A stretch of 51,134 nt of DNA, from the IMG/VR virus record IMGVR_UViG_2724679172_000007. One strand, 5' to 3'. Origin of the DNA: a virus. Its lineage: Duplodnaviria > Heunggongvirae > Uroviricota > Caudoviricetes. Of the stretch, positions 18,021 to 45,460 are shown one piece after another (the first letter of the stretch is position 1; each line of letters opens with the position of its first letter). Both the position numbers and the translations under genes were made by a program. The notes under the pieces are model-generated. The model was not told the DNA's origin. It did no database searches and worked only from the letters and a program-made list of their open reading frames with translations.

Positions 18021-18035
18021 GTTTTCTAACACAAA
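18021..18035. promoter_or_regulatory. Operator-like site (GTTTTCTAACACAAA), member of a dispersed repeat family
   Basis: 15-mer nearly identical to sites at 27901-27938, 40195-40209 and 45445-45460; located in a divergent promoter region. Confidence 0.4.
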
Positions 18036-18046
18036 TCATTAGAGTT

Positions 18047-18439
18047 ATGGCGTATCGAATCTTTGTTTCGTATAAAAATGGCGCTAAGAGCCACTCTCTG
18101 AACACAACAAGTCGCTTTCTTGTTGAGGCGCAGTTGGCATCAATTCTTGCCGAAAGTGAGATACTCTCGCTCGCTGAACGGATCGTTATCCAGTTTTCTG
18201 GTAGAGATATACTCAATGTCCCCGCCCTCACCCCGGCATCCGAAGTTATGGAATCAATTAAATGGCCTGTATGCGGATGTCCTGCCAGGGTTGAAGAGCC
18301 GGTAACTGCAACGCTCTACATGCCGAAAGCTGTAAGAGATTGGCTTGCTATGGTTGGCAATGGGAAAGTCAGTGCTGGACTTCGCAAGTTAATTGAAATG
18401 GCAGATATTCCTGAGTTAAAAAATGCATGGCGACAATGA
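18047..18439 (+). CDS. Hypothetical protein
   Basis: ORF on the strand opposite to the structural operons, downstream of the operator-like site; start placed at the first ATG after the operator. Confidence 0.35.
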   Translation: MAYRIFVSYKNGAKSHSLNTTSRFLVEAQLASILAESEILSLAERIVIQFSGRDILNVPALTPASEVMESIKWPVCGCPARVEEPVTATLYMPKAVRDWLAMVGNGKVSAGLRKLIEMADIPELKNAWRQ

Positions 18440-18455
18440 GTAAACAAGGGACGAA

Positions 18456-18914
18456 ATGAGTCACGTTAACCCATCAAAAACACAATATCGCTTAATGCTG
18501 GCGATCGCGTCAGCTATACCAACCAGCCTGAATCCCCCGACAGGCTATCCCGCTGTTGTTGATGATTGTTTTCAGTATTACGGAGAAGACATCCTGAGCC
18601 AGTCAAAAGCGCTCAAGCAGTTATGTAAGGCAGGTATTCTTCACTGTATCGGAGATCCGGACGATTTTGTTGTTATGCTGGCGGATCGTGACTCTTTTCT
18701 ACTGTCCTGGAAAGCTGGTGCGCGCGAAGCACGTTTGGGGAATGGTATTGGTTACATAGACTATAGCGATTGTCCGCTGGCATTTGCTGGTGGATATATG
18801 CATTGGCATGAGCGAAATAGGGGCCGTCAGCGTCAGTATCGTTTGAGTGACTTTAACGTCTGTCACGGTTTCGAAGAAGCTGACAGCCAGGACATCTGGC
18901 TTCAGGAGCCTTGA
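18456..18914 (+). CDS. Hypothetical protein
   Basis: 152-aa ORF 17 nt downstream of the previous gene. Confidence 0.4.
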   Translation: MSHVNPSKTQYRLMLAIASAIPTSLNPPTGYPAVVDDCFQYYGEDILSQSKALKQLCKAGILHCIGDPDDFVVMLADRDSFLLSWKAGAREARLGNGIGYIDYSDCPLAFAGGYMHWHERNRGRQRQYRLSDFNVCHGFEEADSQDIWLQEP

Positions 18915-19213
18915 TCCCCCTTCCCTTCCCAAATCTCCCTGTTTCTTTGGTTATTCAGTGCGTTTCGTTGGTTGCATTCGTCGATCGTGCTGAATAACTG
19001 TTCAGCGTATGTCGGATACTTGTTTAACAGCACTGGCGTGTCTTCTGGCACTAAACAAGGGGAGTAATCAATCAGATTTGCCTGCGGCTTGCTGGTGGCT
19101 TCTACGGTAATTTTCACTGGCACGCTGGTTGATGGCTTTTGCCCGTTCCCGCTGCATCCTGATAACGTCATCAGGCACACGCACATCGTTAATCCCAGCA
19201 CGGCGTAACGCAT
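18902..19213 (-). CDS. Outer-membrane spanin subunit (Rz1-like lipoprotein)
   Basis: Signal peptide with lipobox (MRYAVLGLTMCVCLMTLSGC); Pro-rich mature part; start embedded in the 3' end of the Rz-like gene in another frame, the classic overlapped spanin architecture. Confidence 0.55.
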   Translation of the reverse strand: MRYAVLGLTMCVCLMTLSGCSGNGQKPSTSVPVKITVEATSKPQANLIDYSPCLVPEDTPVLLNKYPTYAEQLFSTIDECNQRNALNNQRNREIWEGKGDQGS

Positions 19214-19541
19214 TTTCAAGGCGAGTGATTTCATTCTGGCTTTCCTCCCGTTGTTTGATTAGGTTGGCATTCAGTTCTGCTGTTTTGCGCTGGTACTCCT
19301 TTTCCAGTGCTTTAATTCTTTCGTTTTCGGTCAGCATGGCTGAGCGAGCGTTCTCACTTAACTGTAATGCGGTAGAAAGCGTGTTGTTCGTGCTTTCCAG
19401 TTGTGATTTTGAGTCTTCAAGCGCTCGGACATACCTGATGTGTTCGATAACTGCCGTCGTTGTTCGGTAAATTCCAGAAATGGCTAAAAGCGCAATTACA
19501 ATCAAAATTATCTTTTTCAAAACCATCCTCTTTAGGTTCAT
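19068..19541 (-). CDS. Inner-membrane spanin subunit (Rz-like)
   Basis: 157 aa; N-terminal transmembrane segment (KKIILIVIALLAISGIY) followed by a long charged coiled-coil; overlaps the lipoprotein gene. Confidence 0.6.
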   Translation of the reverse strand: MNLKRMVLKKIILIVIALLAISGIYRTTTAVIEHIRYVRALEDSKSQLESTNNTLSTALQLSENARSAMLTENERIKALEKEYQRKTAELNANLIKQREESQNEITRLENALRRAGINDVRVPDDVIRMQRERAKAINQRASENYRRSHQQAAGKSD

Positions 19542-19596
19542 TTTTGGTGTTAAACATGTACCAATTCACATCCTTTTGTGTTCCTAAGTGGTGTTG

Positions 19597-20400
19597 CTAT
19601 GGTTCCTTTTTGGTGTTCTTTTGGAGCGCATCGATAACGCCTTGTGGCATGATTAAACTGATTGCCGGACTCATTACTGCATCATCCAGTAGAGAACCAG
19701 TTAACGTGATGGCGACAGCGTTCTCTAAACCTTTGGTTGCCTGAGTGGTTGACGTTTTAATGCGACCTGTAAGGGCTACGACACTCTCACTTGCTGAGTT
19801 AATTTCGGAGAGTAAAACTTCGGCGGCTGTCACTGCTTCCCGTAAAGCTTCAATTTCATCCTGAGTAATGACTGGAGCCTGAGCGCCCCCAGCACCACCC
19901 TGTCCACCATTGCTATCACCACCAGCACTTCCAGCAGCTTCTATTTTTGCGTTAATGGCGTTCATGGCGGTTTTCAGAGCATCAAGTTTTAGCGCCGTCA
20001 ATGCGTCCGTTAGAGATTGCGGAATGGAAACATTCCCCATCCCCTCAACAAGGGCGAAAGCAGGTATGGGGGTCAGCTCGTTACCTTTTACGTAGCATTC
20101 CCAGCCAATCTTCATCTGTAACAGCTCTGATGGCTTGGTGTAAGGGGAAAGAGAATCAGCCAGTAATGAAGACGCTTTGCTGGCCTCATTTAGCTGTTCA
20201 GAAAAGCCAAGCAATTGAGTAGTCCAGGCCGAAACAGAATCAGGATAGGTTTTATCGGCGTGAACTATTCCCTGTATGGCGCTGGCGAGTGATGAGGCTT
20301 TTACAGACGCTGCCCGGCTTATGGTTATAGATTCTGGTGTAGAGATACCGGCATCTGACAGAATTTTGAAGGCTTTAACTTCACCTATTGAATCAAGCAT
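19597..20400 (-). CDS. Hypothetical protein with Gly/Ala-rich linker
   Basis: Start reassigned to the ATG at 20398-20400, which overlaps the PAAR-like stop codon (TAATG). Confidence 0.4.
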   Translation of the reverse strand: MLDSIGEVKAFKILSDAGISTPESITISRAASVKASSLASAIQGIVHADKTYPDSVSAWTTQLLGFSEQLNEASKASSLLADSLSPYTKPSELLQMKIGWECYVKGNELTPIPAFALVEGMGNVSIPQSLTDALTALKLDALKTAMNAINAKIEAAGSAGGDSNGGQGGAGGAQAPVITQDEIEALREAVTAAEVLLSEINSASESVVALTGRIKTSTTQATKGLENAVAITLTGSLLDDAVMSPAISLIMPQGVIDALQKNTKKEP

Positions 20401-20684
20401 TATGCAACCTGAAAAATATCCTCGCCGTTGGCGATAACAGAACCACAAGAAAGCGGATCGCCTACACAGACAACTCCCTTTCCACCTATCGAAAACCATA
20501 CTCGCGTCGATACAGCTGCCCCTGGATGTGCACTGTTACCGTCAGTGTGACTGGGAAACATGGCACCATCTACAACAACTGGCTTACCGTTAACGGTGAA
20601 CCAGGGAACAGTTTCAGCTACCAGTCGCGGCGGAAATCCTCCGTGACCAGAGCAAAGGGTGTCGCTGGTGGCTATTGCGCTCAT
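20400..20684 (-). CDS. PAAR-like protein (putative spike tip)
   Basis: 94 aa; Gly/Pro/His/Cys-rich with VNGKPVVVDG and GDPLSCGSVI segments resembling PAAR repeats. Confidence 0.45.
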   Translation of the reverse strand: MSAIATSDTLCSGHGGFPPRLVAETVPWFTVNGKPVVVDGAMFPSHTDGNSAHPGAAVSTRVWFSIGGKGVVCVGDPLSCGSVIANGEDIFQVA

Positions 20685-20729
20685 TCTTCACCTCCTGGTT
20701 ATCCTCCTATTGTCATCACTTTGTTATTT

Positions 20730-20930
20730 CGTCATTCAAACTGAGAGTTCAATTTCGGAATATTTTTGTATTCTCAATTCATTCTCAAATAAATCTCACT
20801 GTCAGACCATCATTCATTGGGTGATTAAGATATTCTCAAAATGAACTCAATAATCACTCTTTTTTATCTCTTTTGGTGTGGATTTTTGGGGGCCTCTCTT
20901 TTAAAATTGCATTTTGATTCTCAAATGTGT
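20730..20930. promoter_or_regulatory. Putative parC-like centromere/promoter region upstream of parM
   Basis: Four copies of ATTCTCAA (20769, 20780, 20831, 20916) in an AT-rich region immediately upstream of parM. Confidence 0.4.
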
Positions 20931-20950
20931 CTCAGAAGTGGAGCAAGAAG

Positions 20951-21907
20951 ATGCGCATTTTTATCGATGATGGTTCAACCAATATCAAAATGCTGTGGGA
21001 GCACGACGGGGAAACTCGCACTCACATCAGCCCTAACAGCTTTAAGCGCGGATGGTCAGCAACATTTGGTGCGGGCAAGCCGTTTAACTATGTCATTGAC
21101 GACGAAAAGTATTCGTATGATTTGATCTCGCCAGATGTTCTGCCGACGAATAACGTGGAATGGCAATACAGCCCGCTTAACGTCCTGGCTGTTCACCATG
21201 CCCTGCTGACAAGTGGCATTGAGCCGCAGGAAGTAGAAATTGTGGTCACGCTGCCTCTGGCGGAGTTTTACGACGACGACGCGCAATACAATCTCGATAA
21301 CATCGAGCGCAAGAAAGCCAGCCTTATGCGCCCCGTCACGCTGAATAAAGGCAATGTGTTCACGATTAAGAAAGTTACGGTACGCCCGGAGTCTATTCCG
21401 GCAGGAATTGGCCTGTGCGACAATCTGAACCCTGCCCATTCTGTTCTTATCGTCGATTTGGGTGGAACTACCCTTGATGTTTCAATGGTCGCCGGGCAAA
21501 TGACGGCAGTTTCCCGTGTTTTTGGCGATTCGAATCTTGGCGTCTCTCTGGTTACCAGGGAAGTAAGGCAAGCACTTGCCAGAGCCAATACCGAAACGTC
21601 AAATTACAATGTCGATCAGCTCATTATTAACCGCCACGATGAAGATTATCTGAACGACAATATCAATGACCCATCAGCGATTGGTGATGTGAAAAAGGCC
21701 ATTGCCGCAAGCATTGACCGTCTGCGTACCCGCGTTCTTGATGTGATTGGCGACTTTAAAGGATATACGCATGTCATGGTGATCGGCGGTGGCGCACCGC
21801 TGGTGGCAGATGCAATTCGCGAGCAAGTTAATATTCGTGATGACCGTTTCTTCGTGGCGGATGACCCGCAACTTGCTCTTGTTCATGGCCTGAAAGCAAT
21901 CGGTTAA
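20951..21907 (+). CDS. parM: Actin-like plasmid segregation ATPase ParM/StbA
   Basis: Begins MRIFIDDGSTNIK and contains SPNSFK, NVLAVHHALLTSG, IERKKA, MPESIPAG, IVDLGGTTLD, YTHVMVIGGGA, closely matching plasmid R1 ParM as recalled. Confidence 0.85.
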   Translation: MRIFIDDGSTNIKMLWEHDGETRTHISPNSFKRGWSATFGAGKPFNYVIDDEKYSYDLISPDVLPTNNVEWQYSPLNVLAVHHALLTSGIEPQEVEIVVTLPLAEFYDDDAQYNLDNIERKKASLMRPVTLNKGNVFTIKKVTVRPESIPAGIGLCDNLNPAHSVLIVDLGGTTLDVSMVAGQMTAVSRVFGDSNLGVSLVTREVRQALARANTETSNYNVDQLIINRHDEDYLNDNINDPSAIGDVKKAIAASIDRLRTRVLDVIGDFKGYTHVMVIGGGAPLVADAIREQVNIRDDRFFVADDPQLALVHGLKAIG

Positions 21908-21914
21908 CGAGGTA

Positions 21915-22259
21915 ATGTCCATGTCTCAGGAACGTAAGAAAGTGATGATTTATCTTCGCCCAGAGGCTTATGCCAATGAAAAGGCGGCGAGCGAGAAGAT
22001 AAAAAAACATAGCGATATGGCAAGAACCGCATTGTTGGCAGGGCTTGCGCTGGGAGAAGTCGATAGCAGGCTTCCAGGATTACTGGCTTCCCTGCTGACC
22101 GAAGATAATAATCCGGAGCTGATCCGAAAAATGCTGGCATCCTTCCTGGAACTACCAGCTGCGGTTGAGGAGCGCCCTGCCTCCATTGAGCCAGTGAAGG
22201 AGCAAGTTGTTGCCAAAAGCGCGTCGGCGCGCAATCTGGCTGACTCTCTACCTGATTGA
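21915..22259 (+). CDS. parR: ParR-like centromere-binding adaptor
   Basis: 114-aa ORF 8 nt after parM; ALLAGLALG and LLASLLTEDNN segments resemble R1 ParR; followed by an intrinsic terminator. Confidence 0.55.
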   Translation: MSMSQERKKVMIYLRPEAYANEKAASEKIKKHSDMARTALLAGLALGEVDSRLPGLLASLLTEDNNPELIRKMLASFLELPAAVEERPASIEPVKEQVVAKSASARNLADSLPD

Positions 22260-22276
22260 CAGAAGATGTGCTGGTT

Positions 22277-22303
22277 TAAGGCTGCAAATTGCAGCCTTTT
22301 TTA
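22277..22303 (+). terminator. Rho-independent terminator after parR
   Basis: aaggctgcaaattgcagcc hairpin followed by a TTTTTT run. Confidence 0.6.
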
Positions 22304-22546
22304 TGCCTTAATGGTGCCTAATTGGTGTTTATCTGGCACCAGTTAGGTGCTGTTATGGTGCGGTTTTGTATCTGGTTCCAATTTGGGGCTGATTTCGTGT
22401 TAAATAGGATGCAATATAAGGTGTATTTGGTCTGATTGATGTTATACTTTGCCAAACATTCATGACTCCATTATAGAGCCTGTCCCGCATCAAAAAGGCT
22501 CTTATCTGGAACCGTTTTGATACCAAAATCACACCGAGGAACGGAT

Positions 22547-23188
22547 ATGATTATATTGGTAGTCAGCCAAAAAGGTGGCTGTGGAAAATCAACCACAAGC
22601 GTAAACATCTGTGCGGAGCTTGCCCGCGCAAATAAGGATGTAGTGTTACTAGATGCAGACAAGCAAGGAACAGCTGCCCGCTGGGCAGCTGACCGTAACA
22701 CGGCAGAGGTTTCTCCTGTAATTCATTGTGTCCAGAAGTTTGGTAATATTCGAGAAACACTTCTCGATCTGGATAAGCGTTATGAATTTGTTGTTGTTGA
22801 TACAGCCGGGCGCGATAGCAAAGAGATGCGTACAGGCATAACCGCTGCAGATATTGTGTTGGTCCCATTCAGACCATCTCAACCAGATTTAGACACGCTG
22901 GCACACTTTGTTGAAGTGTTTGAAGAGGCTTTGGACCTGATGCCTAATCCTAGCATTAAGGCGTTCGCAGTCTTAACAATGGCCCCATCCAATCCGGTTG
23001 TGAATGAAACCAATGAGGCCAAAGAGTACCTGGCTGAATATCCGCAACTGAAGTTGCTGAAAACCATCATTCGTGATCGTAAGGTTTACCGCGATTGCAT
23101 GGCTGAAGGGAAGGGCGTTGTTGAGATGGACAACGGGAAAGCTAAAGGTGAAATCCAGATGTTGGTTAAGGAGTTATTAAGTGATTAA
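22547..23188 (+). CDS. parA: Small Walker-type partition ATPase (ParA/ParF-like, type Ib)
   Basis: Deviant Walker A QKGGCGKST near the N-terminus (start set at the ATG at 22547, 6 nt after a GAGGAA SD); about 214 aa, typical of type Ib ParA. Confidence 0.75.
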   Translation: MIILVVSQKGGCGKSTTSVNICAELARANKDVVLLDADKQGTAARWAADRNTAEVSPVIHCVQKFGNIRETLLDLDKRYEFVVVDTAGRDSKEMRTGITAADIVLVPFRPSQPDLDTLAHFVEVFEEALDLMPNPSIKAFAVLTMAPSNPVVNETNEAKEYLAEYPQLKLLKTIIRDRKVYRDCMAEGKGVVEMDNGKAKGEIQMLVKELLSD

Positions 23189-23468
23189 GCCTCGTAAATC
23201 GGTAAAAGCCCCCGAAGTAAAAGACCCCGATCTTGAACGCCGAATTGAGGATTTTGCAAGTAAGGCTGATTTGGTGCCGGGTGAGCAACCAGAAGACAAC
23301 AAAGTGCTCGATAAGGACGCTCCACGTGATTTTAAATCTATTCGTGTTGGTTTCAATGAATACGAGTACCAGGTACTTGATGCGTTGAGCAAAAAGCATA
23401 ATCGCAGCAAATTGAATATGATCCGCCATGCTATCCTCATGTTAGCGGAGTCTGAGGAAGCAAAATAA
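23181..23468 (+). CDS. ParG-like ribbon-helix-helix partition protein
   Basis: 95-aa basic/acidic small protein, GTG start overlapping the parA stop (GTGA); C-terminal region compatible with an RHH fold. Confidence 0.5.
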   Translation: MIKPRKSVKAPEVKDPDLERRIEDFASKADLVPGEQPEDNKVLDKDAPRDFKSIRVGFNEYEYQVLDALSKKHNRSKLNMIRHAILMLAESEEAK

Positions 23469-23508
23469 AGTCTTTCAGGTTGGTTTTAGAACTTAAAAAG
23501 TCTTGAAC

Positions 23509-23560
23509 CAAAGGTGCACCAATACACCACTAATTTGGTGCACCTTTACATCCTTTTTGG
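23509..23560 (+). terminator. Inverted repeat/terminator downstream of the par operon (possible second centromere-like site)
   Basis: Arms caaaggtgcacc / ggtgcaccttt with a 16-nt loop, followed by a T-run (cctttttgg); the GGTGCAC core also occurs upstream of parA. Confidence 0.45.
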
Positions 23561-23736
23561 TTCCAATTGTGTACCATTTGTCATTAATTTACTTATGCGC
23601 AAAAGTGGGCTTCATGAAAAAGCTCATTATTGAAATAACGATAGAAAGTAATTTCTAATCAACTAGTGGTTGTCAGCCTATTCGGCTTATAAGATCATAC
23701 GCTGTTATACGTAGTTTACGCTTTGAGGAATCCACA

Positions 23737-25354
23737 ATGAGTGAGGCAGAAGCCCGCCCGACTAACTTTATTCGTCAGATCATCGATGAAGATCTGGCCA
23801 GTGGTAAGCACACCACAGTACATACCCGTTTCCCGCCGGAACCGAATGGCTATCTGCATATTGGTCATGCGAAATCTATCTGCCTGAACTTCGGGATCGC
23901 CCAGGACTATAAAGGCCAGTGCAACCTGCGTTTCGACGACACTAACCCGGTAAAAGAAGATATCGAGTACGTCGAGTCGATTAAAAACGACGTTGAATGG
24001 TTAGGTTTTCACTGGTCTGGCAACATCCGTTACTCCTCCGATTATTTTGACAAACTCCATGCCTATGCTGTTGAACTGATCAACAAAGGCCTGGCGTATG
24101 TTGACGAACTGACGCCGGAACAGATCCGCGAATACCGCGGCACCCTGACGCAGCCGGGTAAAAACAGCCCGTACCGCGACCGCAGCGTTGAAGAGAACCT
24201 GGCGCTGTTCGAAAAAATGCGTACCAAATTCACCGTTTATCGTGATGCGCGATCCGGTGCTGTACCGCATTAAGTTTGCTGAACATCACCAGACTGGCAA
24301 CAAGTGGTGCATCTACCCGATGTACGACTTCACCCACTGCATCAGCGATGCGCTGGAAGGTATTACGCACTCTCTGTGTACGCTTGAGTTCCAGGACAAC
24401 CGTCGTCTGTATGACTGGGTACTGGACAACATCACCATTCCTGTTCACCCGCGCCAGTACGAATTCTCGCGCCTGAATCTGGAATACACTGTGATGTCCA
24501 AGCGTAAGCTGAACCTGCTGGTGACCGACAAGCACGTTGAAGGCTGGGATGACCCGCGTATGCCGACCATTTCCGGTCTGCGTCGTCGTGGTTACACTGC
24601 GGCTTCTATTCGTGAGTTCTGCAAACGCATCGGCGTGACCAAGCAGGACAACACCATTGAAATGGCGTCGCTGGAATCCTGCATCCGTGAAGATCTCAAC
24701 GAAAACGCGCCGCGCGCAATGGCGGTTATCGATCCGGTGAAACTGGTTATCGAAAACTACCAGGGCGAAGGCGAAATGGTCACCATGCCGAACCATCCGA
24801 ACAAACCGGAAATGGGGAGCCGTCAGGTGCCGTTTAGCGGTGAGATTTGGATCGACCGCGCCGATTTCCGCGAAGAAGCTAACAAGCAGTACAAGCGTCT
24901 GGTGCTGGGTAAAGAAGTGCGTCTGCGTAATGCTTACGTCATTAAGGCAGAACGCGTGGAGAAAGATGCCGAAGGCAATATCACCACCATCTTCTGTACT
25001 TATGACGCCGACACCTTAAGCAAAGATCCGGCAGATGGTCGTAAAGTGAAAGGCGTTATTCACTGGGTGAGCGCGGCACATGCGCTGCCGGTTGAAATCC
25101 GCCTGTACGATCGTCTGTTCAGCGTGCCGAACCCTGGTGCTGCGGAAGATTTCCTGTCGGTGATTAACCCGGAATCGCTGGTGATCAAACAGGGCTTTGC
25201 TGAACCGTCTCTGAAAGACGCGGTAGCGGGTAAAGCATTCCAGTTTGAGCGTGAAGGTTATTTCTGCCTCGACAGCCGCCATTCTACGGCGGAAAAACCG
25301 GTATTTAACCGCACCGTTGGGCTGCGTGATACCTGGGCGAAAGTAGGCGAGTAA
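23737..25354 (+). pseudogene. glnS: Glutaminyl-tRNA synthetase gene (glnS) disrupted by an internal frameshifting indel
   Basis: The N-terminal ORF (23737..24273; HIGH motif in [12 protein letters not shown]) and the C-terminal ORF (24188..25354; VMSKR motif) are consecutive GlnS pieces in different frames; the frame breaks at 24223-24232, where 10 nt (accaaattca) replace roughly 57 nt of the wild-type sequence as recalled. Confidence 0.8.
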
Positions 25355-25400
25355 TTTTAAGTTCAGTTAGGTTAATAGGTATTTCGCCACATAAAAAAGT

Positions 25401-25427
25401 AAACGCCGCTACTGCGGCGTTTTTTAC
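25401..25427. terminator. Bidirectional rho-independent terminator (glnS / dam convergent)
   Basis: Hairpin cgccgc-tact-gcggcg with an A-run upstream and a T-run downstream. Confidence 0.65.
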
Positions 25428-27891: not shown

Positions 27892-27900
27892 GTCTCACCA

Positions 27901-27938
27901 TTTGTGTTAGAAAATACATATTAATTATCTAACACAAA
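27901..27938. promoter_or_regulatory. Pair of inverted operator-like sites in the rdgC promoter region
   Basis: tttgtgttagaaaat (27901-27915) and atctaacacaaa (27927-27938) in opposite orientation, same motif as at 18021, 40195 and 45445. Confidence 0.45.
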
Positions 27939-27950
27939 TGGGTGCATTTT

Positions 27951-31140: not shown

Positions 31141-31210
31141 AAGCATCCTCAAAGGTCGATTTATCAGGTATCGAGGGTGCATTGTCTGGAGATTGTGATT
31201 TCAATTCATA

Positions 31211-32011: not shown

Positions 32012-32746
32012 ATGAGCGCTGATTCATCAATAGAAAAGGAAAACTCCTCTACCCAAAATCTGTTAGAAGATGCTGTAAAAGATAAGTTGTTTAATAAGGT
32101 TTTTGCCTACATTTTTATTTCGTTTTTAATTTCTAATTGGCGAGACATATTTATATTACTGAAGTCAAAAGATGATGTTATGTATACATTATCTATAGTG
32201 TTTGTCGGGGAAAAGATCCCATTATTGGGGAATCTTTTTTTACCATCGTTCGTAGCTCATTTTGTTTTGCCTTTTATTTATGGTGTTGTGGCGTCAATAT
32301 TAGCGCCACTGTTAACCCTGTTAATTTCTTTGGTGACAAGCACATTATATGCTAAATTAAGAAAAATAGATGAAATTGCAAATAAAAAAGAACAAATAAG
32401 GACAATTAACAGTGATATTAAGAAAGCCATTAAGAAGCAGAGAGACGTTAAAAAGTATATTGAACAAGAAGAAGAAGAACTTGAATCATTAGAAAAACGG
32501 CTTAAAGAAATTAGGGAACAGATTGAATGTGTGGATAGCGATATCATTCATATTATTAAATTATATAGAGAGAAAGGTGAGAGCTTAAATTCGGTGGATG
32601 ATTTTTATGAATTTTTTACCGCCGTGAAAAACTCATCTTTTCGTTCGGGTGATACAAATGACAGGGAAACACTTGAGGAGCTTCTCTCAAAGCTTTCTGA
32701 TTCACTTGAAAAAATTAAATGCGATGCTAATAAAAAGGTGGGATAA
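32012..32746 (+). CDS. Low-GC membrane-anchored coiled-coil protein (unknown function; candidate exclusion/abortive-infection effector)
   Basis: 244 aa; conspicuously AT-rich codon usage compared with flanks; hydrophobic segments (FAYIFISFLISNW; LFLPSFVAHFVLPFIYGVVASILAPLLTLLISLVTSTLY) followed by a charged heptad-like region (KKEQIRTINSDIKKAIKKQRDVKKYIEQEEEELESLEKRLKEIREQIE). Confidence 0.5.
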   Translation: MSADSSIEKENSSTQNLLEDAVKDKLFNKVFAYIFISFLISNWRDIFILLKSKDDVMYTLSIVFVGEKIPLLGNLFLPSFVAHFVLPFIYGVVASILAPLLTLLISLVTSTLYAKLRKIDEIANKKEQIRTINSDIKKAIKKQRDVKKYIEQEEEELESLEKRLKEIREQIECVDSDIIHIIKLYREKGESLNSVDDFYEFFTAVKNSSFRSGDTNDRETLEELLSKLSDSLEKIKCDANKKVG

Positions 32747-34331: not shown

Positions 34332-34357
34332 CAGCGTCACCAGGCCTGGTGACGCTG
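34332..34357. terminator. Perfect 26-bp palindrome (terminator/operator) downstream of the higBA-2 operon
   Basis: cagcgtcaccagg|cctggtgacgctg. Confidence 0.4.
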
Positions 34358-34362
34358 TGAAA

Positions 34363-35924: not shown

Positions 35925-36207
35925 TGTCCTTCCTCCACGGATGACGGATACAAAAAAAGGCCGCACATGGCGGCCTGCTTTGGCGTTATGACTCCCTACC
36001 GCGCTTCGGCTGAAAGTTAATCGTCAAAAGAACCTTCAACGGGAGCCGTTAGCGCGATGGATTATGTGCAGTTTGTGATTTCCAAAATAGTGTCAACCAC
36101 TTTTTGTGGATTTTATTTTTTGACCGAAATTTGGCCTAAATCATGTTGATGTAGTTGATTGTTTTTGTAACATAAAACTTCATTTTGTTTACATGAAGGA
36201 CGGTGTA

Positions 36208-36816: not shown

Positions 36817-36836
36817 GTTACGCAGCGGAGGCAGAA

Positions 36837-37537: not shown

Positions 37538-37596
37538 CGTGCGGATAATCCGATTATTTGGCAGTTAAATCCCCGGCGTCGCCGGGGATGCAGCAT

Positions 37597-38523
37597 TTAA
37601 CTAACAATCCAGTCCATAGCAATAACATCCTCTGGAGCTAAATCAATAGCATGGATTTTCCCGTCACGGATGGTGCGCCAGTGCTTTCGTGATCCACCTT
37701 CGGGCCACACCCATATACCTTCAGGCCAGGAAGAACGACGACACACTGTTGCGTATCCAGTCCTGATCTTCTCTCTGACGGTATGTAGTGACAGATTATC
37801 CTTTGGGCTTTCAGGCACAGGATGGTGGATTGCCTGAAACATCCCCATCTTTGGATGATACCAGCGTTTATTGCGTGGTTCTGCCTCCGACATCACCTGC
37901 TTAAAGGCTTTCCGGAAGGGGGCCAGGGCCACAATGGAGCGTCGCGCAAGCAAACCCTCTGGAGTTAAAAACTCATGCGTATCGGTGGGAATCCGGAAAG
38001 CGTTAACCAGGTTGCGACATTTGGCTTCAGTCAGGCCACATTTCGCCGCCAGCTGGCGGTAGCCAATGTAACCTTCCGGCATATTGCCTTTCTTGATTTG
38101 CTCGAGTGTTTCAGCGACCATCGATACTTGTGCTGATACCTCGGCTACCTGGGCATTTACGGCGTTGATCCGGCGTTCATGCTCAAGATGCATTTGCGCC
38201 ATTTCAGCCAGAATTTCGGCTTTTGATTTTAACTGTACCCGGGCATTCTCCAGTTCGCGCCAGCGGTCCACCAGCCGGGCGGTGAATTCGGGAGAGAGCT
38301 GCGCAACGACAATAATGCTGTCTCGTTTGCCTTGCTCGCCTTCGAAGACGTAATAGCTCGCCGGGCGGCCTGCGGTGGGCTTTTCCTCAATTTGAGGAAA
38401 AGATATTACGCCCCGTTCCGCCAGGTGTTCAATGGTGCGTTTAACGTTATCAGGGCGCTTACCTACCAGTTCCGCGATCTCAATGCTGGTCATTGTCGCT
38501 TTTTGAGAGATGGACAGATTCAT
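37597..38523 (-). CDS. Phage regulatory protein, Rha family / antirepressor
   Basis: N-terminal region (MTSIEIAELVGKRPDNVKRTIEHLAERGVISFPQIEE) matches the Rha-domain pattern; C-terminal antirepressor-like domain. Confidence 0.6.
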   Translation of the reverse strand: MNLSISQKATMTSIEIAELVGKRPDNVKRTIEHLAERGVISFPQIEEKPTAGRPASYYVFEGEQGKRDSIIVVAQLSPEFTARLVDRWRELENARVQLKSKAEILAEMAQMHLEHERRINAVNAQVAEVSAQVSMVAETLEQIKKGNMPEGYIGYRQLAAKCGLTEAKCRNLVNAFRIPTDTHEFLTPEGLLARRSIVALAPFRKAFKQVMSEAEPRNKRWYHPKMGMFQAIHHPVPESPKDNLSLHTVREKIRTGYATVCRRSSWPEGIWVWPEGGSRKHWRTIRDGKIHAIDLAPEDVIAMDWIVS

Positions 38524-38738
38524 CAGTGCGCCTCCACGCAGTTCATCGGCAGATTCCAGTAATTGAGGATCTCCATCGCATCAAGAGTGAAGCGAGCAGC
38601 AAAAATGCAGGGTTCTTCGGGAAGGTATGAGCGCGCCTCTGCTTCGGTAGCAGCCATGACGCAGATATACAGGTGTTTTTGGCAGGAATAGAAACGCCAG
38701 ATAAATTCAGAATGAGTTGGGGTAGGGATAGTAGCCAT
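38523..38738 (-). CDS. Hypothetical small protein
   Basis: 71-aa ORF whose stop overlaps the start of the Rha gene. Confidence 0.35.
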   Translation of the reverse strand: MATIPTPTHSEFIWRFYSCQKHLYICVMAATEAEARSYLPEEPCIFAARFTLDAMEILNYWNLPMNCVEAH

Positions 38739-39048
38739 ATTGGCAGCCTCCTTTGACTAAGTTAAGGAGCTACCGCGTGAGGTTCCAATCTCAATGGCGG
38801 TAGCACTGACTGGGTTGGAACTACCGGCGTCAAAGGGAACCGGCCTGCCTTTCGGCAGCCCAGCCAGCACTACCATTGATCTCTGAGCTAAACGCTACGT
38901 ATGGCTGTGCGATGGCATGACACAAAAAAGACGCTTTCGGCGTCTGTGTCGCCTTTGACATTATCCGGGGTTCCAATCCCGGCACCCGTTTTTCTAAGGT
39001 GCCGTAGAAATATACCCCACGATAATGCCAGGGCGCAACAGTCAGTAT

Positions 39049-39216
39049 TTTATGCTTTGGCGGATTTCTTCCGGGCTTGCTTGCAGGCGTAGGCCATTGC
39101 TTTAACTTTCACTTCATCCAGCTTCCCGGTGATCACTTCTTTTCCGGGAGTGACAAACCAGTCATAGCAACCGCCAGTGATGTTCTGGATTTGAAAGTTG
39201 AGGTAGCGAACAGTCA
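39049..39216 (-). CDS. Small ORF (55 aa), hypothetical
   Basis: ATG preceded by SD GGGGGTG; translation MTVRYLNFQIQNITGGCYDWFVTPGKEVITGKLDEVKVKAMAYACKQARKKSAKA; not in the supplied track because it is under 60 aa. Confidence 0.25.
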
Positions 39217-39548
39217 TTTTGACACCCCCGACGCGAGTAAAGAATGCAGATTATCGCGTGAGTGGTGGACGACGAGTGATGGGAAAAGACTGTAGTTGTT
39301 CATAGTGTAGTGACTCCTTGCTTTCGGAGCCGCCATCGACTGTTCCACGGTCTGGTGGCGGCGCAATAAAGGCTGGAACACCGTGAGTCAACGGGGGCTT
39401 TTCAGCCACCTATATTGCACCGCCATAGGTATGACGGCGGCAATAATACGAAAAACTAAACAGTTTGTCTCAAAAAGTTGACCGGTGTGCCAATCGGTAG
39501 TGAATGTACATCGGAGAAATTTACAATTCAACTTAAAATGTTAGAAAA

Positions 39549-40127
39549 TTAATTTATCAATTCAATCGCCATCTGATACAACGTCATTTCATCGGCATTG
39601 TGCCGCATGAAATCTGCTTTTCCGCCTATTTTTCCGTCAGCATGAACAGGGACCAGCCAGGGATATTGTTCTCGGACCTCGGCTGGCGCTGCGTACTGGT
39701 GGTGCCATTTACACAAAGGGAGGACATATTTATGCGCGTTCTCTGCCGTTCTCCCGAAGATATGGTGCAGGGATACCACTGGGCTATGTTGCCCGTGAAT
39801 ATGGCAGGCAATGCAGGGGAGAGCACCGATAGCGGTCTGTATCCGGCGTTCATCGGCTGTGAGTGATCTGCCTTTCAGGCCGCGTGACGTGCGTGTTTTT
39901 TTGGACGGAGCGGATACAGCTTTATCTTTTCTCCGCTGTTCATATTGCTTTGCTTTTTCATTTTTCTTTTGCCGATATTCAGGCGATGCGGCCTTTTCTC
40001 TCGCTCGCTGCTGCTGGCGTTGAGCTTGTTGAAGGCGCTTTGCCCTTTGTTCCTCTCGCCAGGCCGGGTCAGCCAATTTTTGCATGGCTTTTTGTCTCTG
40101 TTTCTCCCAATAACTCTGTTTCTGCAT
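39549..40127 (-). CDS. ref: HNH endonuclease with basic N-terminal region (P1 Ref-like recombination enhancement function)
   Basis: 192 aa; Lys/Arg/Gln-rich N-terminal half, then an HNH-like core (ALPCIACHIHGQHSPVVSLHHIFGRTAENAHKYVLPLCKWHHQ); flanked by operator-like sites. Confidence 0.5.
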   Translation of the reverse strand: MQKQSYWEKQRQKAMQKLADPAWREEQRAKRLQQAQRQQQRAREKAASPEYRQKKNEKAKQYEQRRKDKAVSAPSKKTRTSRGLKGRSLTADERRIQTAIGALPCIACHIHGQHSPVVSLHHIFGRTAENAHKYVLPLCKWHHQYAAPAEVREQYPWLVPVHADGKIGGKADFMRHNADEMTLYQMAIELIN

Positions 40128-40194
40128 GATGGCAGTCTCTTACTTTTCAACGATTTTTCTATGATTGATCAAAATGGTTAGATATTCAAAATTG

Positions 40195-40209
40195 ATTTTC
40201 TAACACAAA
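40195..40209. promoter_or_regulatory. Operator-like site (ATTTTCTAACACAAA) in the divergent ref / DUF4406 promoter region
   Basis: Exact 15-mer shared with the other dispersed sites. Confidence 0.4.
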
Positions 40210-40399
40210 ACATTAATATCATCACTGATAAATGTTTGGAGGACATGATGCTTATAGCTTTAAGTGCGATCCACCAGCCATCTGTGAATGAGATTGGCCT
40301 GTTCTATGTGTTGTTTTTCGGGGCGTTGGCGCTACTTGAGCTTGGTATTGAGCTTTTCGCAGTGCTTATGTTTTGCGTCACGATTTTGGGGAAATTTTG

Positions 40400-41023
40400 A
40401 TGGTGAAACGTGTTTTGAAAATTTACATCGCGGGGCCGATGACTGGTTATCCAGACTACAACCGTGCGGCGTTTAATGCGAAAGCGAGCGAGCTGATGTC
40501 TGAAGGGCATATCGTTCTGAATCCAGCTGTGTTACCTGGTGGCCTTTGCCAGAGTGAATACATGGATATTTGCCTGGCAATGGTGCGTTCTGCTGATGCG
40601 ATCTATCTGCTCAATCAATGGGAAGAATCGGTTGGTGCTCGCGCAGAGCACGCGCTGGCTGAAAAGCTGGGGCTGACTGTAATTTATGAGTCACAAACCA
40701 ACATTGAATGCCAGGTTGCTCCGCATATTTACCGTGAACTGGTAAATGCGTTACGTGATGTTGCTATTGAATGTCACGGCACGGATCAGCTTCGCGCCCG
40801 CTTAAGCAAAACCCTTTCCAGTTACCTGTCTTTGGTTGAAGGATACAACCTCCGGCAGCGGAGAATGGTCAAATTAATCACGCGTTTATCTCAATCCCTG
40901 GCAAATGCCGAACCAACTAATCCGCTACCTAATGACGCAATGAATTATCTGAAGTCATGCGGCGTTGTTTCTGAAGATGCAGTTCGTTTTGTGGAGTTTA
41001 TGTCTCAGAGGATGTCAGCGTGA
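40400..41023 (+). CDS. DUF4406-like (nucleoside 2-deoxyribosyltransferase-like fold) protein with C-terminal extension
   Basis: N-terminus VLKIYIAGPMTGYPDYN matches the signature of the DUF4406 family as recalled; start set at the ATG at 40400 after a GGGGAAA SD. Confidence 0.45.
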   Translation: MVKRVLKIYIAGPMTGYPDYNRAAFNAKASELMSEGHIVLNPAVLPGGLCQSEYMDICLAMVRSADAIYLLNQWEESVGARAEHALAEKLGLTVIYESQTNIECQVAPHIYRELVNALRDVAIECHGTDQLRARLSKTLSSYLSLVEGYNLRQRRMVKLITRLSQSLANAEPTNPLPNDAMNYLKSCGVVSEDAVRFVEFMSQRMSA

Positions 41024-41337
41024 GCTGGCGGGGATGGGGAAGGGCGGAAATCATGATACTCCGCCAGTGCGCCGGGACTATGACAGTCGTGAGTATTGGG
41101 AGGCTGATCGGGCGTACCGGTAGTGCTGTCAGAACCAAAGCGCGGCAACTGCGGATCTGCATGATTCTGAAAGGAGACTTTCACCCGTCAGCCAAATACC
41201 GGCAGGGCGATATAGAACTGGCACGGCAGCTTCATCGGTGTGGTGTTCCCCGCCGTGAGATCGCAGAAAAACTCGAAATGCCCTTGAGCATGATTAATCA
41301 GTACGTTTATTTCGAAAGGAGAGTACATGAAGTCTGA
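41020..41337 (+). CDS. Small putative DNA-binding protein (HTH-like)
   Basis: 105 aa, start overlaps the upstream stop; two helix-turn-helix-like segments. Confidence 0.35.
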   Translation: MSWRGWGRAEIMILRQCAGTMTVVSIGRLIGRTGSAVRTKARQLRICMILKGDFHPSAKYRQGDIELARQLHRCGVPRREIAEKLEMPLSMINQYVYFERRVHEV

Positions 41338-41815
41338 AGGTTTAACGCCAGCACAACTGGCAGAGCGTAACGCTGAGTATGTAACGGAAATTTCCCGACT
41401 TGAGAAAGAACGCTCGGCGCTGGCGGCGGAGAATGCTGGGCTGAAACATGCAATGGCTGTAACTCTTGAGCATGTGTCGGTCACGGATGCAGGGCAGGCC
41501 GGAGTTGCTGCAATGATTATCAACGATGCCCTGCACCACAGCGAAACTCCAGCCACCGATGCTTTTCTGGCTGAAATTCGTGCGGAGGCTCGCAACGAGG
41601 GGATTAACTATACCGCAAGCCGTCTTGCTGCTGCTTTCAACCACGGATTTATCAATAAGTCTTTACGTGAAGTTTTCGACGTTACACGCATGATTCTGTC
41701 AGCGAAAGAAGAGTTGGCTAATGAACCGCACCCGATTGATGGCCTGTCCGGTGAATATGCGGAGAAATCCCTTGAAGAATGGGCGGAACAGATTCGCAAA
41801 GGAGCTGACAAGTGA
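41327..41815 (+). CDS. Ea22-like family paralogue (shares central module with the 46781..47401 gene)
   Basis: Central segment ALAAENAGLKHAMAVTLEHVSVTDAGQAGVAAMIINDALHHSETPATDAFLAE is nearly identical at protein level to the paralogue at 46781; C-terminal EQIRKG tail. Confidence 0.45.
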   Translation: MKSEGLTPAQLAERNAEYVTEISRLEKERSALAAENAGLKHAMAVTLEHVSVTDAGQAGVAAMIINDALHHSETPATDAFLAEIRAEARNEGINYTASRLAAAFNHGFINKSLREVFDVTRMILSAKEELANEPHPIDGLSGEYAEKSLEEWAEQIRKGADK

Positions 41816-42222
41816 AGAAGATGATTTTTGTCGCGGCATTGTTGGTGAATATCCAACAAGTGCATGCTTCAGCAGCTATTGTAGCCTCTACCGCCGCGAC
41901 TACGGCTGCTGTAGCTGCTGCGAACTCTGCGAATATCGCAAACCAACAGGCACAGCGTGCTGCTAATGCATCAGCCAGCGTTCACTCAATCACCATTAAG
42001 AGCAGTAAGCAAAATCTGGGATTCATAACGTGCGGCACGCGTTCTAATGAAGCTGTAGGTTCACTTGGATGTACGGTATATGGGGGTAGTGAGAATAGAG
42101 AAATTCCATGGAAAACGTGGCCCGGATACGTTCTTGGCTCGAAGCTCCCGGCCAGTTATGAAGTAAACGCCGTATCGTTTGATCACTATAACGGCGTGGC
42201 AACGGTCTATTTTGCATATTGA
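41812..42222 (+). CDS. Small secreted protein (signal peptide)
   Basis: Signal-peptide-like N-terminus (MKKMIFVAALLVNIQQVHASAAIVAS); start overlaps the upstream stop. Confidence 0.4.
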   Translation: MKKMIFVAALLVNIQQVHASAAIVASTAATTAAVAAANSANIANQQAQRAANASASVHSITIKSSKQNLGFITCGTRSNEAVGSLGCTVYGGSENREIPWKTWPGYVLGSKLPASYEVNAVSFDHYNGVATVYFAY

Positions 42223-42230
42223 GGCTCCGC

Positions 42231-43031
42231 ATGAAATTCTCCAAATTTTCTGAGTTGGTGAATCGTATTTTGTTGAATCGTATTTTGTCCAACAACCACA
42301 GCCATCGTCGCGATATGGATGTAACGATCGTTGTTCATTCGCCTGGCAGCATTGGTTCAACACCCTCAGTTGAGGTTCAGTCAATTCACGCTGGTTTTGA
42401 TTGGGATTCCGGGAAAGTGCTGATTTTCCCAGCACAGCCACTGACCACGCTAACACCAGAACAGATTACTGATATTACTGATAGTGTGCGCAAAGGTCAG
42501 TCCTGGCACGCATATCAGGAATACAAGAAGCATCAAGAGCAGTTGGAAAAATTATCGATTGAACTTGATACCGCAAAACAGCGCATTGCAGAGCTGGAGG
42601 GTAATCGCGCGGCGCTGGCTGCGGAGAATGCGAGACTGAAGGCGATATGTGAGGATCGCCGCACGTTCATTATGAATGGCGTGCAGCTTGGTTTTATCAA
42701 GGTGCCAACAGTGGAAATAGATCCAGCTCTTGAAACAATTCGTATCGCCCTATCACCACAAAAAACCACTCCTGCGACCGACACTTTCCTGGATGAAGTG
42801 AAGACTGAAGCACGCAAGGAGGGCGCTTACTTTGTGGCGAATAGAATGCTGGCTGCCTGGGAAGCTGGTTTTATTGATGATACTGCGAAGAACGCCGCGG
42901 ATATTGCCCGGATGATTCTTACCTCTACTGAGTTTATGGCTAATGCGCGGGAAGGCGATTTTGACCGCTCATTCTCTGATGGTGTTCTCGAAGATATCGC
43001 TGAACAGCTTCGCAAAGGAGGCAGCCAGTGA
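42231..43031 (+). CDS. Ea22-like family paralogue
   Basis: Start at the ATG at 42231 after a GAGG SD; central coiled-coil (LEKLSIELDTAKQRIAELEGNRAALAAENARLKA) and C-terminal AEQLRKGGSQ tail shared with the family. Confidence 0.45.
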   Translation: MKFSKFSELVNRILLNRILSNNHSHRRDMDVTIVVHSPGSIGSTPSVEVQSIHAGFDWDSGKVLIFPAQPLTTLTPEQITDITDSVRKGQSWHAYQEYKKHQEQLEKLSIELDTAKQRIAELEGNRAALAAENARLKAICEDRRTFIMNGVQLGFIKVPTVEIDPALETIRIALSPQKTTPATDTFLDEVKTEARKEGAYFVANRMLAAWEAGFIDDTAKNAADIARMILTSTEFMANAREGDFDRSFSDGVLEDIAEQLRKGGSQ

Positions 43032-43669
43032 GCGAGCTTTACTATCAGACGTTACGTGAACGTTTTTCACCGAAACCAGCGCCTAAATGCTCTGTTTGTG
43101 GCGAGGAAATGTCAATGCAGCGCATATCTGGATCACATGTTGTTTATGCCTGTTCCGGCATGGAGGACGACGGATGCTTCAAAACTGGACGAACTTATGC
43201 TGACGAGCATTACAAAAAATCGCGCATAACAGTAGTTGATGATAGCGATCCTGATGTGATTGAACTGCTGGAAGAGAACATGGAGATGGCTCTAACGCTT
43301 GAGAAGCTGCGTGTTGAGCTGGAGGCTGCTAAACAGCGTATTGCCGAATATGAAAGCAATTGCGGGGCGATGGTGGCGGAATGCCAAAGCAAAAAAGCAG
43401 CACTTGAGGCAATTCTTAGCCATTGCCCAATTAATCATCCAGATATAGACATCGCATGTATAGCGAACATCGCTCATAACGAATTAGGCGAGGCGAAAAG
43501 CACTACATCTAAGGCATACCTTGTAGAAATACAGGCACAAGGGGTGGAGGCATTCGCTTTGACGATGCGCGATACCGGAGATGATCCATTTTTTGATTCC
43601 GTTGCTTCTGCTTGCGCGGATGCAGCTGATAGGTTCGCTGACCAGCTTCGAAAAGGAGGCAAACAGTGA
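43028..43669 (+). CDS. Ea22-like family paralogue with N-terminal Cys-rich zinc-ribbon-like segment
   Basis: GTG start overlapping the upstream stop (GTGA); LEKLRVELEAAKQRIAEYESN coiled-coil; C-terminal ADQLRKGGKQ. Confidence 0.45.
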   Translation: MSELYYQTLRERFSPKPAPKCSVCGEEMSMQRISGSHVVYACSGMEDDGCFKTGRTYADEHYKKSRITVVDDSDPDVIELLEENMEMALTLEKLRVELEAAKQRIAEYESNCGAMVAECQSKKAALEAILSHCPINHPDIDIACIANIAHNELGEAKSTTSKAYLVEIQAQGVEAFALTMRDTGDDPFFDSVASACADAADRFADQLRKGGKQ

Positions 43670-43914
43670 GTAATACCGCACGACTACAGCTTGGTTTTTC
43701 ACCGCTATCAAAAACCATCGTGTTGGCAAAAATGCGTGACTTAGGGGATGGAACAAAACGTCGTGTCGGCAATGATCGCGGTCGTGATGTAACCAACGAG
43801 GCCGCACAACTCGTTTGGCATCTAGTCATGGCTGAAGGCGGTGAAATTAATTGGGAGCTGGATGATGGTTCTCGCATGGTATTAAAGGCAGAAAAGCAGG
43901 AGCCACCACAGTGA
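43666..43914 (+). CDS. Hypothetical small protein
   Basis: 82-aa ORF translationally coupled to its neighbours. Confidence 0.35.
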   Translation: MSNTARLQLGFSPLSKTIVLAKMRDLGDGTKRRVGNDRGRDVTNEAAQLVWHLVMAEGGEINWELDDGSRMVLKAEKQEPPQ

Positions 43915-44219
43915 ATATCGACACCACGATAACGATCGATACGGCCCTAAATACCGGTCTGGCACTTCTCGGTTGGCTTTACATCATGTCCCGTACCTGG
44001 CGATGGCTGGGTTCCATTTTCCTAAAAGAGTGGAAAAAACGGCGCAAACAGGAACTACGCCAGAAGGCATTAGAAGCGTTCTATGACGCATTTGAACTTA
44101 GCCGCATTGAACCAGGCACAACAGCCAGAATAGCGATAAAAGGCGACCTGATGATAGTGATGTTCAGACAGGAGAAACCAAATGACAGAACAGACGATGA
44201 CAAATCGCGAACTTGTTGA
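43911..44219 (+). CDS. Hypothetical small membrane protein
   Basis: 102 aa with a hydrophobic N-terminal segment (LNTGLALLGWLYIM); the C-terminal part carries the EPGTTARIAIKGDLMIVMFRQEK module. Confidence 0.35.
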   Translation: MNIDTTITIDTALNTGLALLGWLYIMSRTWRWLGSIFLKEWKKRRKQELRQKALEAFYDAFELSRIEPGTTARIAIKGDLMIVMFRQEKPNDRTDDDKSRTC

Positions 44220-44406
44220 TGCCGCGATTGAACTTGCTGGCGATTTTTATTCCATGATGGGTTACGAGCATCGACCTGGTTTTAAGTATTGGGAGTCACC
44301 GCATCCGCAAGAACAACAGGTGTTTGAAATGGCCTGCCGTGCTTTTGAGGTTATTCGCGGTTCTGATGTGATGGAGGCCGTTGCCGACTTGGAGGATGAA
44401 GAGTGA
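44182..44406 (+). CDS. Hypothetical small protein
   Basis: 74-aa acidic ORF. Confidence 0.35.
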   Translation: MTEQTMTNRELVDAAIELAGDFYSMMGYEHRPGFKYWESPHPQEQQVFEMACRAFEVIRGSDVMEAVADLEDEE

Positions 44407-44714
44407 GCATCATTAAAGAAATGCCGGTAGAACGTGATGAATATGGCTGCTGGACACATCCGGAGTATGAGAAGTTTTGCGCAGGTCGTGAATATATTTC
44501 CACTGAGGAATTTGACGCCTGGATGAAGGAAAATAATCTTCAGTGGACTATTCGCAGTATGGATGAAGATGATTTTGATCTGGACGCAGCTGGTCCCGAT
44601 ATTGCCGCCTGGGAACCGGAGCGACCAGAGGGTGAAGGCTGGTTTGTTGGCTCTATTCATGACACTGAAGATGGTCCAGTTTGTATCTGGCTGCGGGAGA
44701 AGGTTGCCGCATGA
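44403..44714 (+). CDS. Hypothetical small protein
   Basis: 103-aa acidic ORF; its stop overlaps the phosphatase start. Confidence 0.4.
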
Positions 44715-45403
44715 TCCAGACTATGCATGAAGTGAATTTATATAGCCGTATTGATGGTTCTGGCTACAGAAACATATGGGTTGTTGGTGATCTGCATGGT
44801 TGCTACACCAGACTGATGTCCGAACTCCATCGTGTGGATTTTGACCCGGCGCAGGATTTACTGATATCGGTTGGCGACCTTATCGATCGCGGTACTGAAA
44901 ATGTCGAATGTCTGGAACTATTGCAGATGCCCTGGTTCAGGGCAGTAATGGGGAACCATGAGCGGTTGATGCTTGATGCGTTAAGTCCTGATGGCAACGT
45001 GAATAACTGGCTAATTAATGGCGGACAATGGTTCTTCATGCTGGGCACTGATCAGGAAATATTAGCCAAGGCGCTGGTGGAGCTGGTAAAGCGTCTGCCA
45101 TATATCATTGAGTTGAACACCGGGCATGAAACTATCGTTATAGCCCATGCCGACTATCCAGGTGGAGAGTACCAGTTCGGTAAGGATGTGTCGTTTTTTG
45201 ATGTTGTCTGGTCGCGCAGTCGCGTCGGTGATTCGATAGATGGCATTGGTGGAGAAATCACAGGCGCAGATCGCTTTATCTTTGGGCACACACCGGTACG
45301 AAGACCAAAAGCATACTGGAATCAGCACTACATAGACACGGGCGCGGTTTTTTGCGGAAATCTGACGCTAATGCAGGTGAAGGGAGGGCAGCTTAAAGTC
45401 TGA
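44711..45403 (+). CDS. Serine/threonine protein phosphatase (lambda PPase/PrpA-like metallophosphatase)
   Basis: Metallophosphatase motifs GDLHG, GDLIDRG and GNHE; about 230 aa; ATG overlaps the upstream stop (ATGA). Confidence 0.75.
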
Positions 45404-45444
45404 TCAAATCATTTACGCACTCAAATCACGTTAGAACATTGATT

Positions 45445-45460
45445 TTAGTTTTCTAACATA
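45445..45460. promoter_or_regulatory. Operator-like site (TTAGTTTTCTAACATA) with a partial inverted copy at 45430-45436
   Basis: Same motif family as 18021, 27901 and 40195; lies between the phosphatase gene and the 45501 gene. Confidence 0.35.

Follow-up and report, generated by a model that had tools for sequence, protein, structure and literature searches.

Dispersed asymmetric sites in a D6-like phage-plasmid as probable operators of a C1-type repressor

Operator-like sites in the window

The window analysed here is a stretch of viral DNA of 51,134 nucleotides (IMG/VR record IMGVR_UViG_2724679172_000007), in which a short motif is dispersed over several intergenic regions in a manner that recalls the C1 operators of phage P1. 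A 12-kb part of the window was 98.3% identical to Escherichia phage D6, a P1-related plasmid prophage, and by blastn the window corresponded to positions 37047-85831 of D6, with several mosaic replacements. The same 12-kb D6-like stretch matched 139 plasmid records, mostly from E. coli and Salmonella. Judged by these alignments, the window is part of a D6-like, P1-related phage-plasmid.

An earlier note on this DNA had described the motif as an asymmetric 15-mer. The alignment of all copies bore out the asymmetry and gave a longer consensus, aAATTAGTTTTCTAACAcaaa, with the invariant core TTTCTAAC. When a position matrix derived exclusively from D6 sites beyond the window region was applied to the window, it detected exactly six strong sites, with scores of 19.6-27.6. 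The next real match scored 11.3, and the best score over 30 shuffled versions of the window was 16.7. All six strong sites were intergenic, in agreement with the intergenic or promoter location claimed for the copies. They are given below together with two weak half-sites.

18015-18036, plus strand: operator-like site ATTTTAGTTTTCTAACACAAAT, matrix score 27.6
27900-27921, minus strand: proximal site of the rdgC(hrdC)-methyltransferase operon, core TTTCTAACA at 27905-27913, score 19.6
27918-27939, plus strand: distal site of the rdgC(hrdC)-methyltransferase operon, core TATCTAACA at 27926-27934, score 22.1
39534-39555, minus strand: site after the ref stop, core at 39539-39547, score 25.4
40171-40192, minus strand: weak inverted partner half-site TATCTAACC, score 8.1, below the chance ceiling when taken alone
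40189-40210, plus strand: site in the divergent ref / orf88-DUF4406 region, core at 40197-40205, score 24.0
45424-45445, minus strand: weak inverted partner half-site GTTCTAACG, score 8.5
45442-45463, plus strand: site upstream of the pdcB-like DUF968 gene (ATG 45501), core at 45450-45458, score 26.2

The individual copies of the 15-mer that had been listed earlier fared unequally. Those at 27901-27915 (minus strand) and 40195-40209 (plus strand) were exact, and the one at 18021-18035 (plus strand) had a single mismatch. The second rdgC copy was present, also with one mismatch, but its bounds are 27924-27938 (plus strand) and not 27927-27938. The copy assigned to 45445-45460 differed from the 15-mer at four positions, and its true core, TTTCTAACA, lies at 45450-45458. 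Two copies had been called partial. The first, at 39539-39549, exists but is a full-strength minus-strand site by matrix score. The second, at 45430-45436, is indeed partial and corresponds to the weak inverted partner located exactly 21 bp from the main site.

The identities proposed for the neighbouring genes (RdgC, D12 methyltransferase, Ref, DUF4406 and DUF968) were confirmed by Pfam. At 18015-18036, the core ended 15 nt ahead of the start codon (ATG, 18047) of the orf52-like gene. This site also preceded the major capsid gene, which is divergently oriented (minus strand, start 17888), by 127 nt. In the rdgC pair, the core of the proximal site ended 13 nt before the rdgC ATG (27891), and the distal site contained, on the rdgC strand, the -10-like hexamer GATAAT (27929-27924). 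The sole promoter-like match at this pair was TAGAAA-18-GATAAT, the start region of which is covered by the proximal site. The 39539-39547 core was found one base past the ref stop codon (39549-39551), and this site faced a minus-strand module made of small open reading frames, an isrK-like RNA, a C4 antisense RNA, icd and the antirepressor gene. The 40189-40210 site preceded the ref start codon (minus strand, 40127) by approximately 70 nt and the plus-strand genes by approximately 40 nt. The 45442-45463 site preceded the DUF968 (pdcB-like) gene by 42 nt.

Enrichment of the core in non-coding DNA

The 15-mer, allowing up to three mismatches, occurred 5 times in the window against 2.4 expected, which was not significant as 11 of 100 shuffled sequences reached this number. 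The exact 9-mer TTTCTAACA was also found 5 times, with an expectation of 0.5, and none of the 100 shuffles reached 5. When all 8-mers of the complete D6 genome were counted without bias, TTCTAACA ranked first in intergenic enrichment, with 11 of its 12 copies falling within the 10% of non-coding DNA (p = 7e-11). The matrix search of complete D6 yielded 13-14 strong operator-like sites. The core-like copy CTTCTAACA in coding DNA of the window (32061-32069, minus strand) was devoid of the flanks and looks like a chance match. A further sequence, TTTGTAACA, was noticed at window position 36164-36172 (TTTATAACA in D6, at 72195), about 30-40 bp upstream of a simB-like gene. It is possibly a degenerate operator; its matrix score in D6, 10.9, was within the range of shuffled sequences.

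The C1 gene and the sites of complete D6

Neither c1 nor lpa was found inside the window by tblastn, in line with the earlier statement that no repressor gene is evident there. The D6 record carries both genes beyond the window, with a C1-like prophage repressor annotated at 227-1264 and an Lpa-like late activator at 4161-4553. No operator features are annotated in this GenBank record. The product of D6 gene 1 (227-1264) aligned with P1 C1 over 240 amino acids with 21% identity (pairwise E 2e-8), and was 62 residues longer. The family PF27008, Phage_P7_repressor_C1, was assigned in precomputed Pfam results to the cluster representative P0001, 99% identical to D6 C1, and to the other homologues found. 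A second protein search with the C1 alignment added one further homologue, and a profile search of the genome contigs with the same alignment gave no match. On the strength of these similarities D6 gene 1 is a C1-family repressor, which places outside the window the C1-like gene that had been sought elsewhere in the element. A keyword search of the literature, in which the D6 genome paper (2018) was not covered, found no publication on D6 operators, and a text search with the motif string returned unrelated papers only.

The D6 sites with an identified gene context outside or inside the window region were the following (D6 coordinates).

194: 22 bp upstream of c1
4627: 85 bp upstream of lpa, score 23.5 against a shuffle maximum of 16.2, absent from the training set
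21260: downstream of repL
64111/64129: hrdC-dmt
75975: ref 3' end / immI
76630: ref
89943: operon ending in isaA

Conservation in relatives

At rdgC, at orf52, on both sides of ref and at pdcB, the cores were invariant across relatives while spacers and flanks diverged. The core of the 18015-18036 site was unchanged in 20 relatives in which nearby bases varied, and the 39534-39555 site was invariant in 21. The 40189-40210 site was kept together with its partner element, TATCTAAC. The 45442-45463 site was similarly kept; its pdcB partner, GTTAGAAC, was conserved and the 2-3 bases just outside it varied. These outer bases (window 45426-45428) read CAC, TAC, TGC, TGT, TTT or CGC among otherwise nearly identical relatives.

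The rdgC pair was kept in D6-like viral contigs with an HrdC 77-99% identical, and the T-to-A variant of the distal core was fixed in all relatives having the pair. A relative with an HrdC 68% identical retained only the proximal site. In two metagenomic relatives, with C1 proteins 51% and 44% identical, TTTTCTAACA was present upstream of c1, of lpa and of the dUTPase operon, and also downstream of a pmgS-like gene. In relative L007 (C1 44% identical) the motif was located at position 624, just upstream of the DUF968 gene.

Co-variation of the core with the C1 lineage

Four C1 lineages were each associated with their own intergenic-enriched variant of a common TCTAA core: GCTCTAAT in P1, TTTCTAAC in D6, ATTCTAAGG in the Leclercia/Citrobacter lineage and ATTCTAAA in Pantoea. 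The C1 proteins of the Leclercia and Citrobacter plasmids shared 49% identity with one another and approximately 30% with D6 C1. The most intergenic-enriched words of these plasmids, TTCTAAG and ATTCTAAGG, were again found in front of c1 and of ref, and beside cre. The statistics were weaker for the Pantoea plasmid, which represents the fourth lineage. In a cross-count, each word was enriched in its own element only. Thirteen of the 15 copies of GCTCTAAT in P1 were inside annotated operators, and this word was not enriched in D6; TTCTAACA was absent from P1. Of the evidence at hand, this co-variation of site and lineage argues most strongly for C1 as the binding protein.

Geometry of the paired sites

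Where a strong D6 site had an inverted partner upstream, the offset was exactly 21 bp; over the range from 10 to 40, no partner was seen at any other distance. In the rdgC pair the distal site was inverted with respect to the proximal one, with core starts 21 bp apart. The half-site at 40171-40192 reads GGTTAGATA on the plus strand (40176-40184), 21 bp from the 40197 core, and the half-site at 45424-45445 reads CGTTAGAAC (45429-45437), 21 bp from the 45450 core. The two members of a D6-type pair point outward, i.e., are divergent. This arrangement suggests that two repressor molecules bind side by side.

The rdgC operator pair (window 27895-27945) is palindromic, each arm being 14-18 bp long. 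Beyond the conserved core, the outer bases of the arms changed in step on both sides in different lineages, and double compensatory changes were observed in 6 of 17 pairs. Such parallel changes could result from a hairpin or cruciform, or from template-switch repair within the quasi-palindrome. A genome-wide change of repressor specificity was considered as the cause of these symmetric flank changes and was rejected, because no parallel change was seen at the other operators of these genomes.

Other features of the window

The C4 and isrK-like RNAs mentioned above were detected with Rfam.

38793-38880, minus strand: C4 antisense RNA, 77 bits
38924-39002, minus strand: isrK-like RNA, 63 bits

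Located upstream of icd and of an antirepressor gene, they form a second immI-like module; D6 has another one at approximately 20-21 kb. In D6, the 1.2-kb segment 7850-9085 is without any annotated gene.

A second dispersed motif, AAATCACA-N7-(T/C/G)AnnnT, was observed on the minus strand of the window at 1092-1112, 9306-9326, 17938-17958, 31181-31201 and 36061-36081, where it precedes the R, pmgB, major capsid (23), gene 7 and mat operons. In P1, the corresponding places are occupied by the Lpa-dependent late promoters LPs, LPsit, LP23, LP26 and LPmat, which likewise constitute a dispersed intergenic class of motif in the same phages (a -22 box AAGTGACTT, 4 nt and a -10). The AAATCACA motif is probably the late-promoter box of D6-type elements, and differs from the P1 arrangement AAGTGACTT-N4-TAnnnT. 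The possibility that the TTTCTAACA motif itself is the Lpa late-promoter box was rejected, because the late box is a different sequence at other places and the TTTCTAACA motif is found at early genes.

Proposed regulon and alternative explanations

The sites are very probably operators for the C1-type master repressor of a D6-like phage-plasmid. The C1-like immunity regulon put forward in the earlier note is supported in this respect by the C1-family gene of D6, by the P1-like positions of the sites and by the lineage co-variation. The analysis itself establishes the sites with their enrichment, positions and conservation, and their co-variation with the C1 lineage; from these we infer that C1 is the protein bound and that repression follows from binding. 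In the model that we propose, the repressor is made in the prophage state from its gene outside the window, and every asymmetric site, about 20 bp long (consensus aAATTAGTTTTCTAACAcaaa, invariant core TTTCTAAC), would be bound by a single C1 molecule. Several promoters have a further inverted site, usually a weaker one, at a distance of exactly 21 bp (two helical turns), where another molecule would bind alongside. Each site would lie on or just downstream of an early promoter, and C1 binding is therefore proposed to block transcription. The genes silenced in this way would be the rdgC-methylase operon, ref, the orf88-DUF4406-ppp operon, the pdcB operon, orf52-53 and the second c4-icd-antirepressor module. 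Elsewhere in the genome, the same sites would control c1 itself, lpa and other early operons. A loss of C1 activity would then turn on the whole lytic programme at once.

Several observations weigh against this model. Sigma-70 promoter predictions around most sites were weak or absent. Five consecutive sites in D6 (8910-11380 and 21260) were all plus-oriented, in a part of the genome where all annotated genes are on the minus strand. The Pantoea variant came from a weakly annotated 19-kb stretch, with p about 1e-3. The identity between the D6 and P1 C1 proteins was only 21%, and the P1 consensus, ATTGCTCTAATAAATTT, had no match in the window at up to three mismatches; the pairing of protein and site therefore rests on position and co-variation.

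Two other explanations, both of which we hold improbable and to the same degree, deserve to be weighed. The motif might be a shared promoter core, consisting of a -10-like hexamer and a conserved start region, read by RNA polymerase alone or with an early activator. A TAnnnT hexamer directly before the core in 11 of 13 D6 sites and the seven sites that aim at a start codon 13-60 nt away would both fit such a core. The information profile showed however that TAnnnT is far less conserved than TTTCTAAC, and TCTAAC is without the key A2 and T6 of a -10 hexamer. A promoter would account neither for the five sites whose orientation is opposite to that of every annotated gene nor for inverted pairs with a constant spacing of 21 bp, and the motif parallels the P1 operator both in position and in core. 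The sites could otherwise be bound by another phage or host protein, for example of the Xre/HigA type, of the antirepressor type or a nucleoid protein, and the element does encode several other putative DNA binders. Against such a protein, the motif variant tracks the C1 lineage across four clades, and the positions of the sites reproduce the P1 C1 regulon, c1 and lpa included. To our knowledge, no host consensus fits TTTCTAACA. The weakest explanation, which we consider very improbable, invokes chance matches in AT-rich intergenic DNA, as the lack of significance of the degenerate 15-mer would allow, or leftover module-boundary repeats without a regulatory role; it is contradicted by the excess of the exact core, by the top rank of the core 8-mer in intergenic DNA, by matrix matches far above the shuffled controls, by the invariance of the core across diverged relatives and by mosaic breakpoints between the window and D6 that do not coincide with the sites.

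With the sites read as C1 operators, the operator sequence would define the genes held silent in the prophage, and would offer a simple prediction of immunity groups among P1-like elements from their sequence. D6-like phage-plasmids are common in E. coli, Salmonella and Shigella, and some relatives or remnants are found on resistance plasmids. The conjugative, multidrug-resistance plasmid pK91 of Salmonella Typhi (NZ_CP029871; loci L008/L009) holds such a D6-like remnant, with c1 (68% identity), a cre-like recombinase gene, dUTPase and phd/doc and no phage structural genes. The D6-type sites would also supply parts for the study of a monomeric repressor on an asymmetric site.

Predicted fold of C1 and its likeness to Tus

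Searching solved structures with the C1 sequence revealed no related structure. AlphaFold models of two D6-type C1 proteins, P0001 (pLDDT 70) and P0010 (pLDDT 82), were of moderate confidence, with pTM values of 0.45-0.47. A structure search with both models returned at E <= 1e-3 only E. coli Tus bound to Ter DNA (best E 5e-7), over alignments of 194-308 columns; the next matches had E above 0.07. The TM-scores were low, at 0.28-0.42, and no sequence similarity between C1 and Tus was detectable (hhalign probability 0.6%), so that the likeness to Tus is no more than a lead. Tus acts as a monomer, clamped onto asymmetric DNA, and this mode of binding would suit a repressor of asymmetric operators. 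The known function of Tus-Ter is fork arrest, whereas that proposed for C1 is transcriptional repression. The TerB site is 22 bp long (PMC4499146). The only sequence shared by the D6-type site and TerB was AACTAAA, a match short enough to be due to chance. None of the papers listed in a literature search dealt with both a C1 repressor and Tus.

We suggest tentatively, and with somewhat more doubt than belief, that the C1 proteins of P1-like phage-plasmids are Tus-fold monomeric clamps that read TCTAA, with the neighbouring bases largely setting the immunity specificity. The base following TCTAA may then be the specificity base, T in P1, C in D6, G in Leclercia/Citrobacter and A in Pantoea. If true, this would explain how a monomer binds a long asymmetric site, and the bound operators would possibly act as oriented roadblocks. 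What merits further study here is the set of clade-specific core variants, together with the Tus-like model.

Comparison with P1 and other known systems

The C1 repressor of P1 recognizes 22 dispersed operators with an asymmetric 17-bp consensus (PMC8546580). The P1 GenBank record contains 20 annotated C1 operator sites, some of which are components of bivalent operators, and the consensus extracted from them was ATTGCTCTAATAAATTT. Many D6-type sites have a P1 counterpart at an equivalent place. The 27900/27918 pair corresponds to Odmt/Op68, upstream of uhr-hrdC-dmt, the 40189 site to Oref, upstream of ref, and the 39534 site to Omat, which overlaps the ref stop, as well as to Oc4, which precedes c4-icd-ant. 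In D6, site 21260 corresponds to Oc4 and to Orlf, just after repL, site 194 to the Oc1 sites upstream of c1, site 4627 to Olpa, upstream of lpa, and site 89943 to Ossb, which heads the operon ending in isaA. The pmgR/S/T operator sites of P1 also have D6-type positional counterparts. The P1-like viral contig L119 has P1-type sites in front of ref and at its stop codon, precisely at the places occupied by D6-type sites in the window.

The likeness to P1 and P7 thus lies in many dispersed asymmetric sites, confined to promoter regions, a homologous repressor family and a common TCTAA core. Apart from TCTAA and AT-rich flanks, the P1 and D6 consensus sequences have little in common. The bivalent operators of P1 are convergent and overlap by 6 bp, whereas the D6-type pairs are divergent with cores 21 bp apart. 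When P1 proteins were compared to D6 by tblastn, Lpa was found (31% identity, E 4e-13), and Coi and Lxc had no meaningful match; these two are accessory features and do not define the operators. The D6-type system would work like that of P1 while belonging, as the sequences indicate, to a different specificity group.

A resemblance to the CI repressor of phage lambda exists in that lytic promoters are silenced by a repressor of the prophage, which also controls its own expression. The lambda CI operators are symmetric, clustered at two loci and bound by dimers, whereas the D6-type sites are single, asymmetric and distributed genome-wide over a dozen or more promoters. A specialist would anticipate a feature of this kind in a relative of P1. 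The D6-type set appears to represent a new specificity, with a different paired-site geometry, within a known kind of system, and not a new kind.

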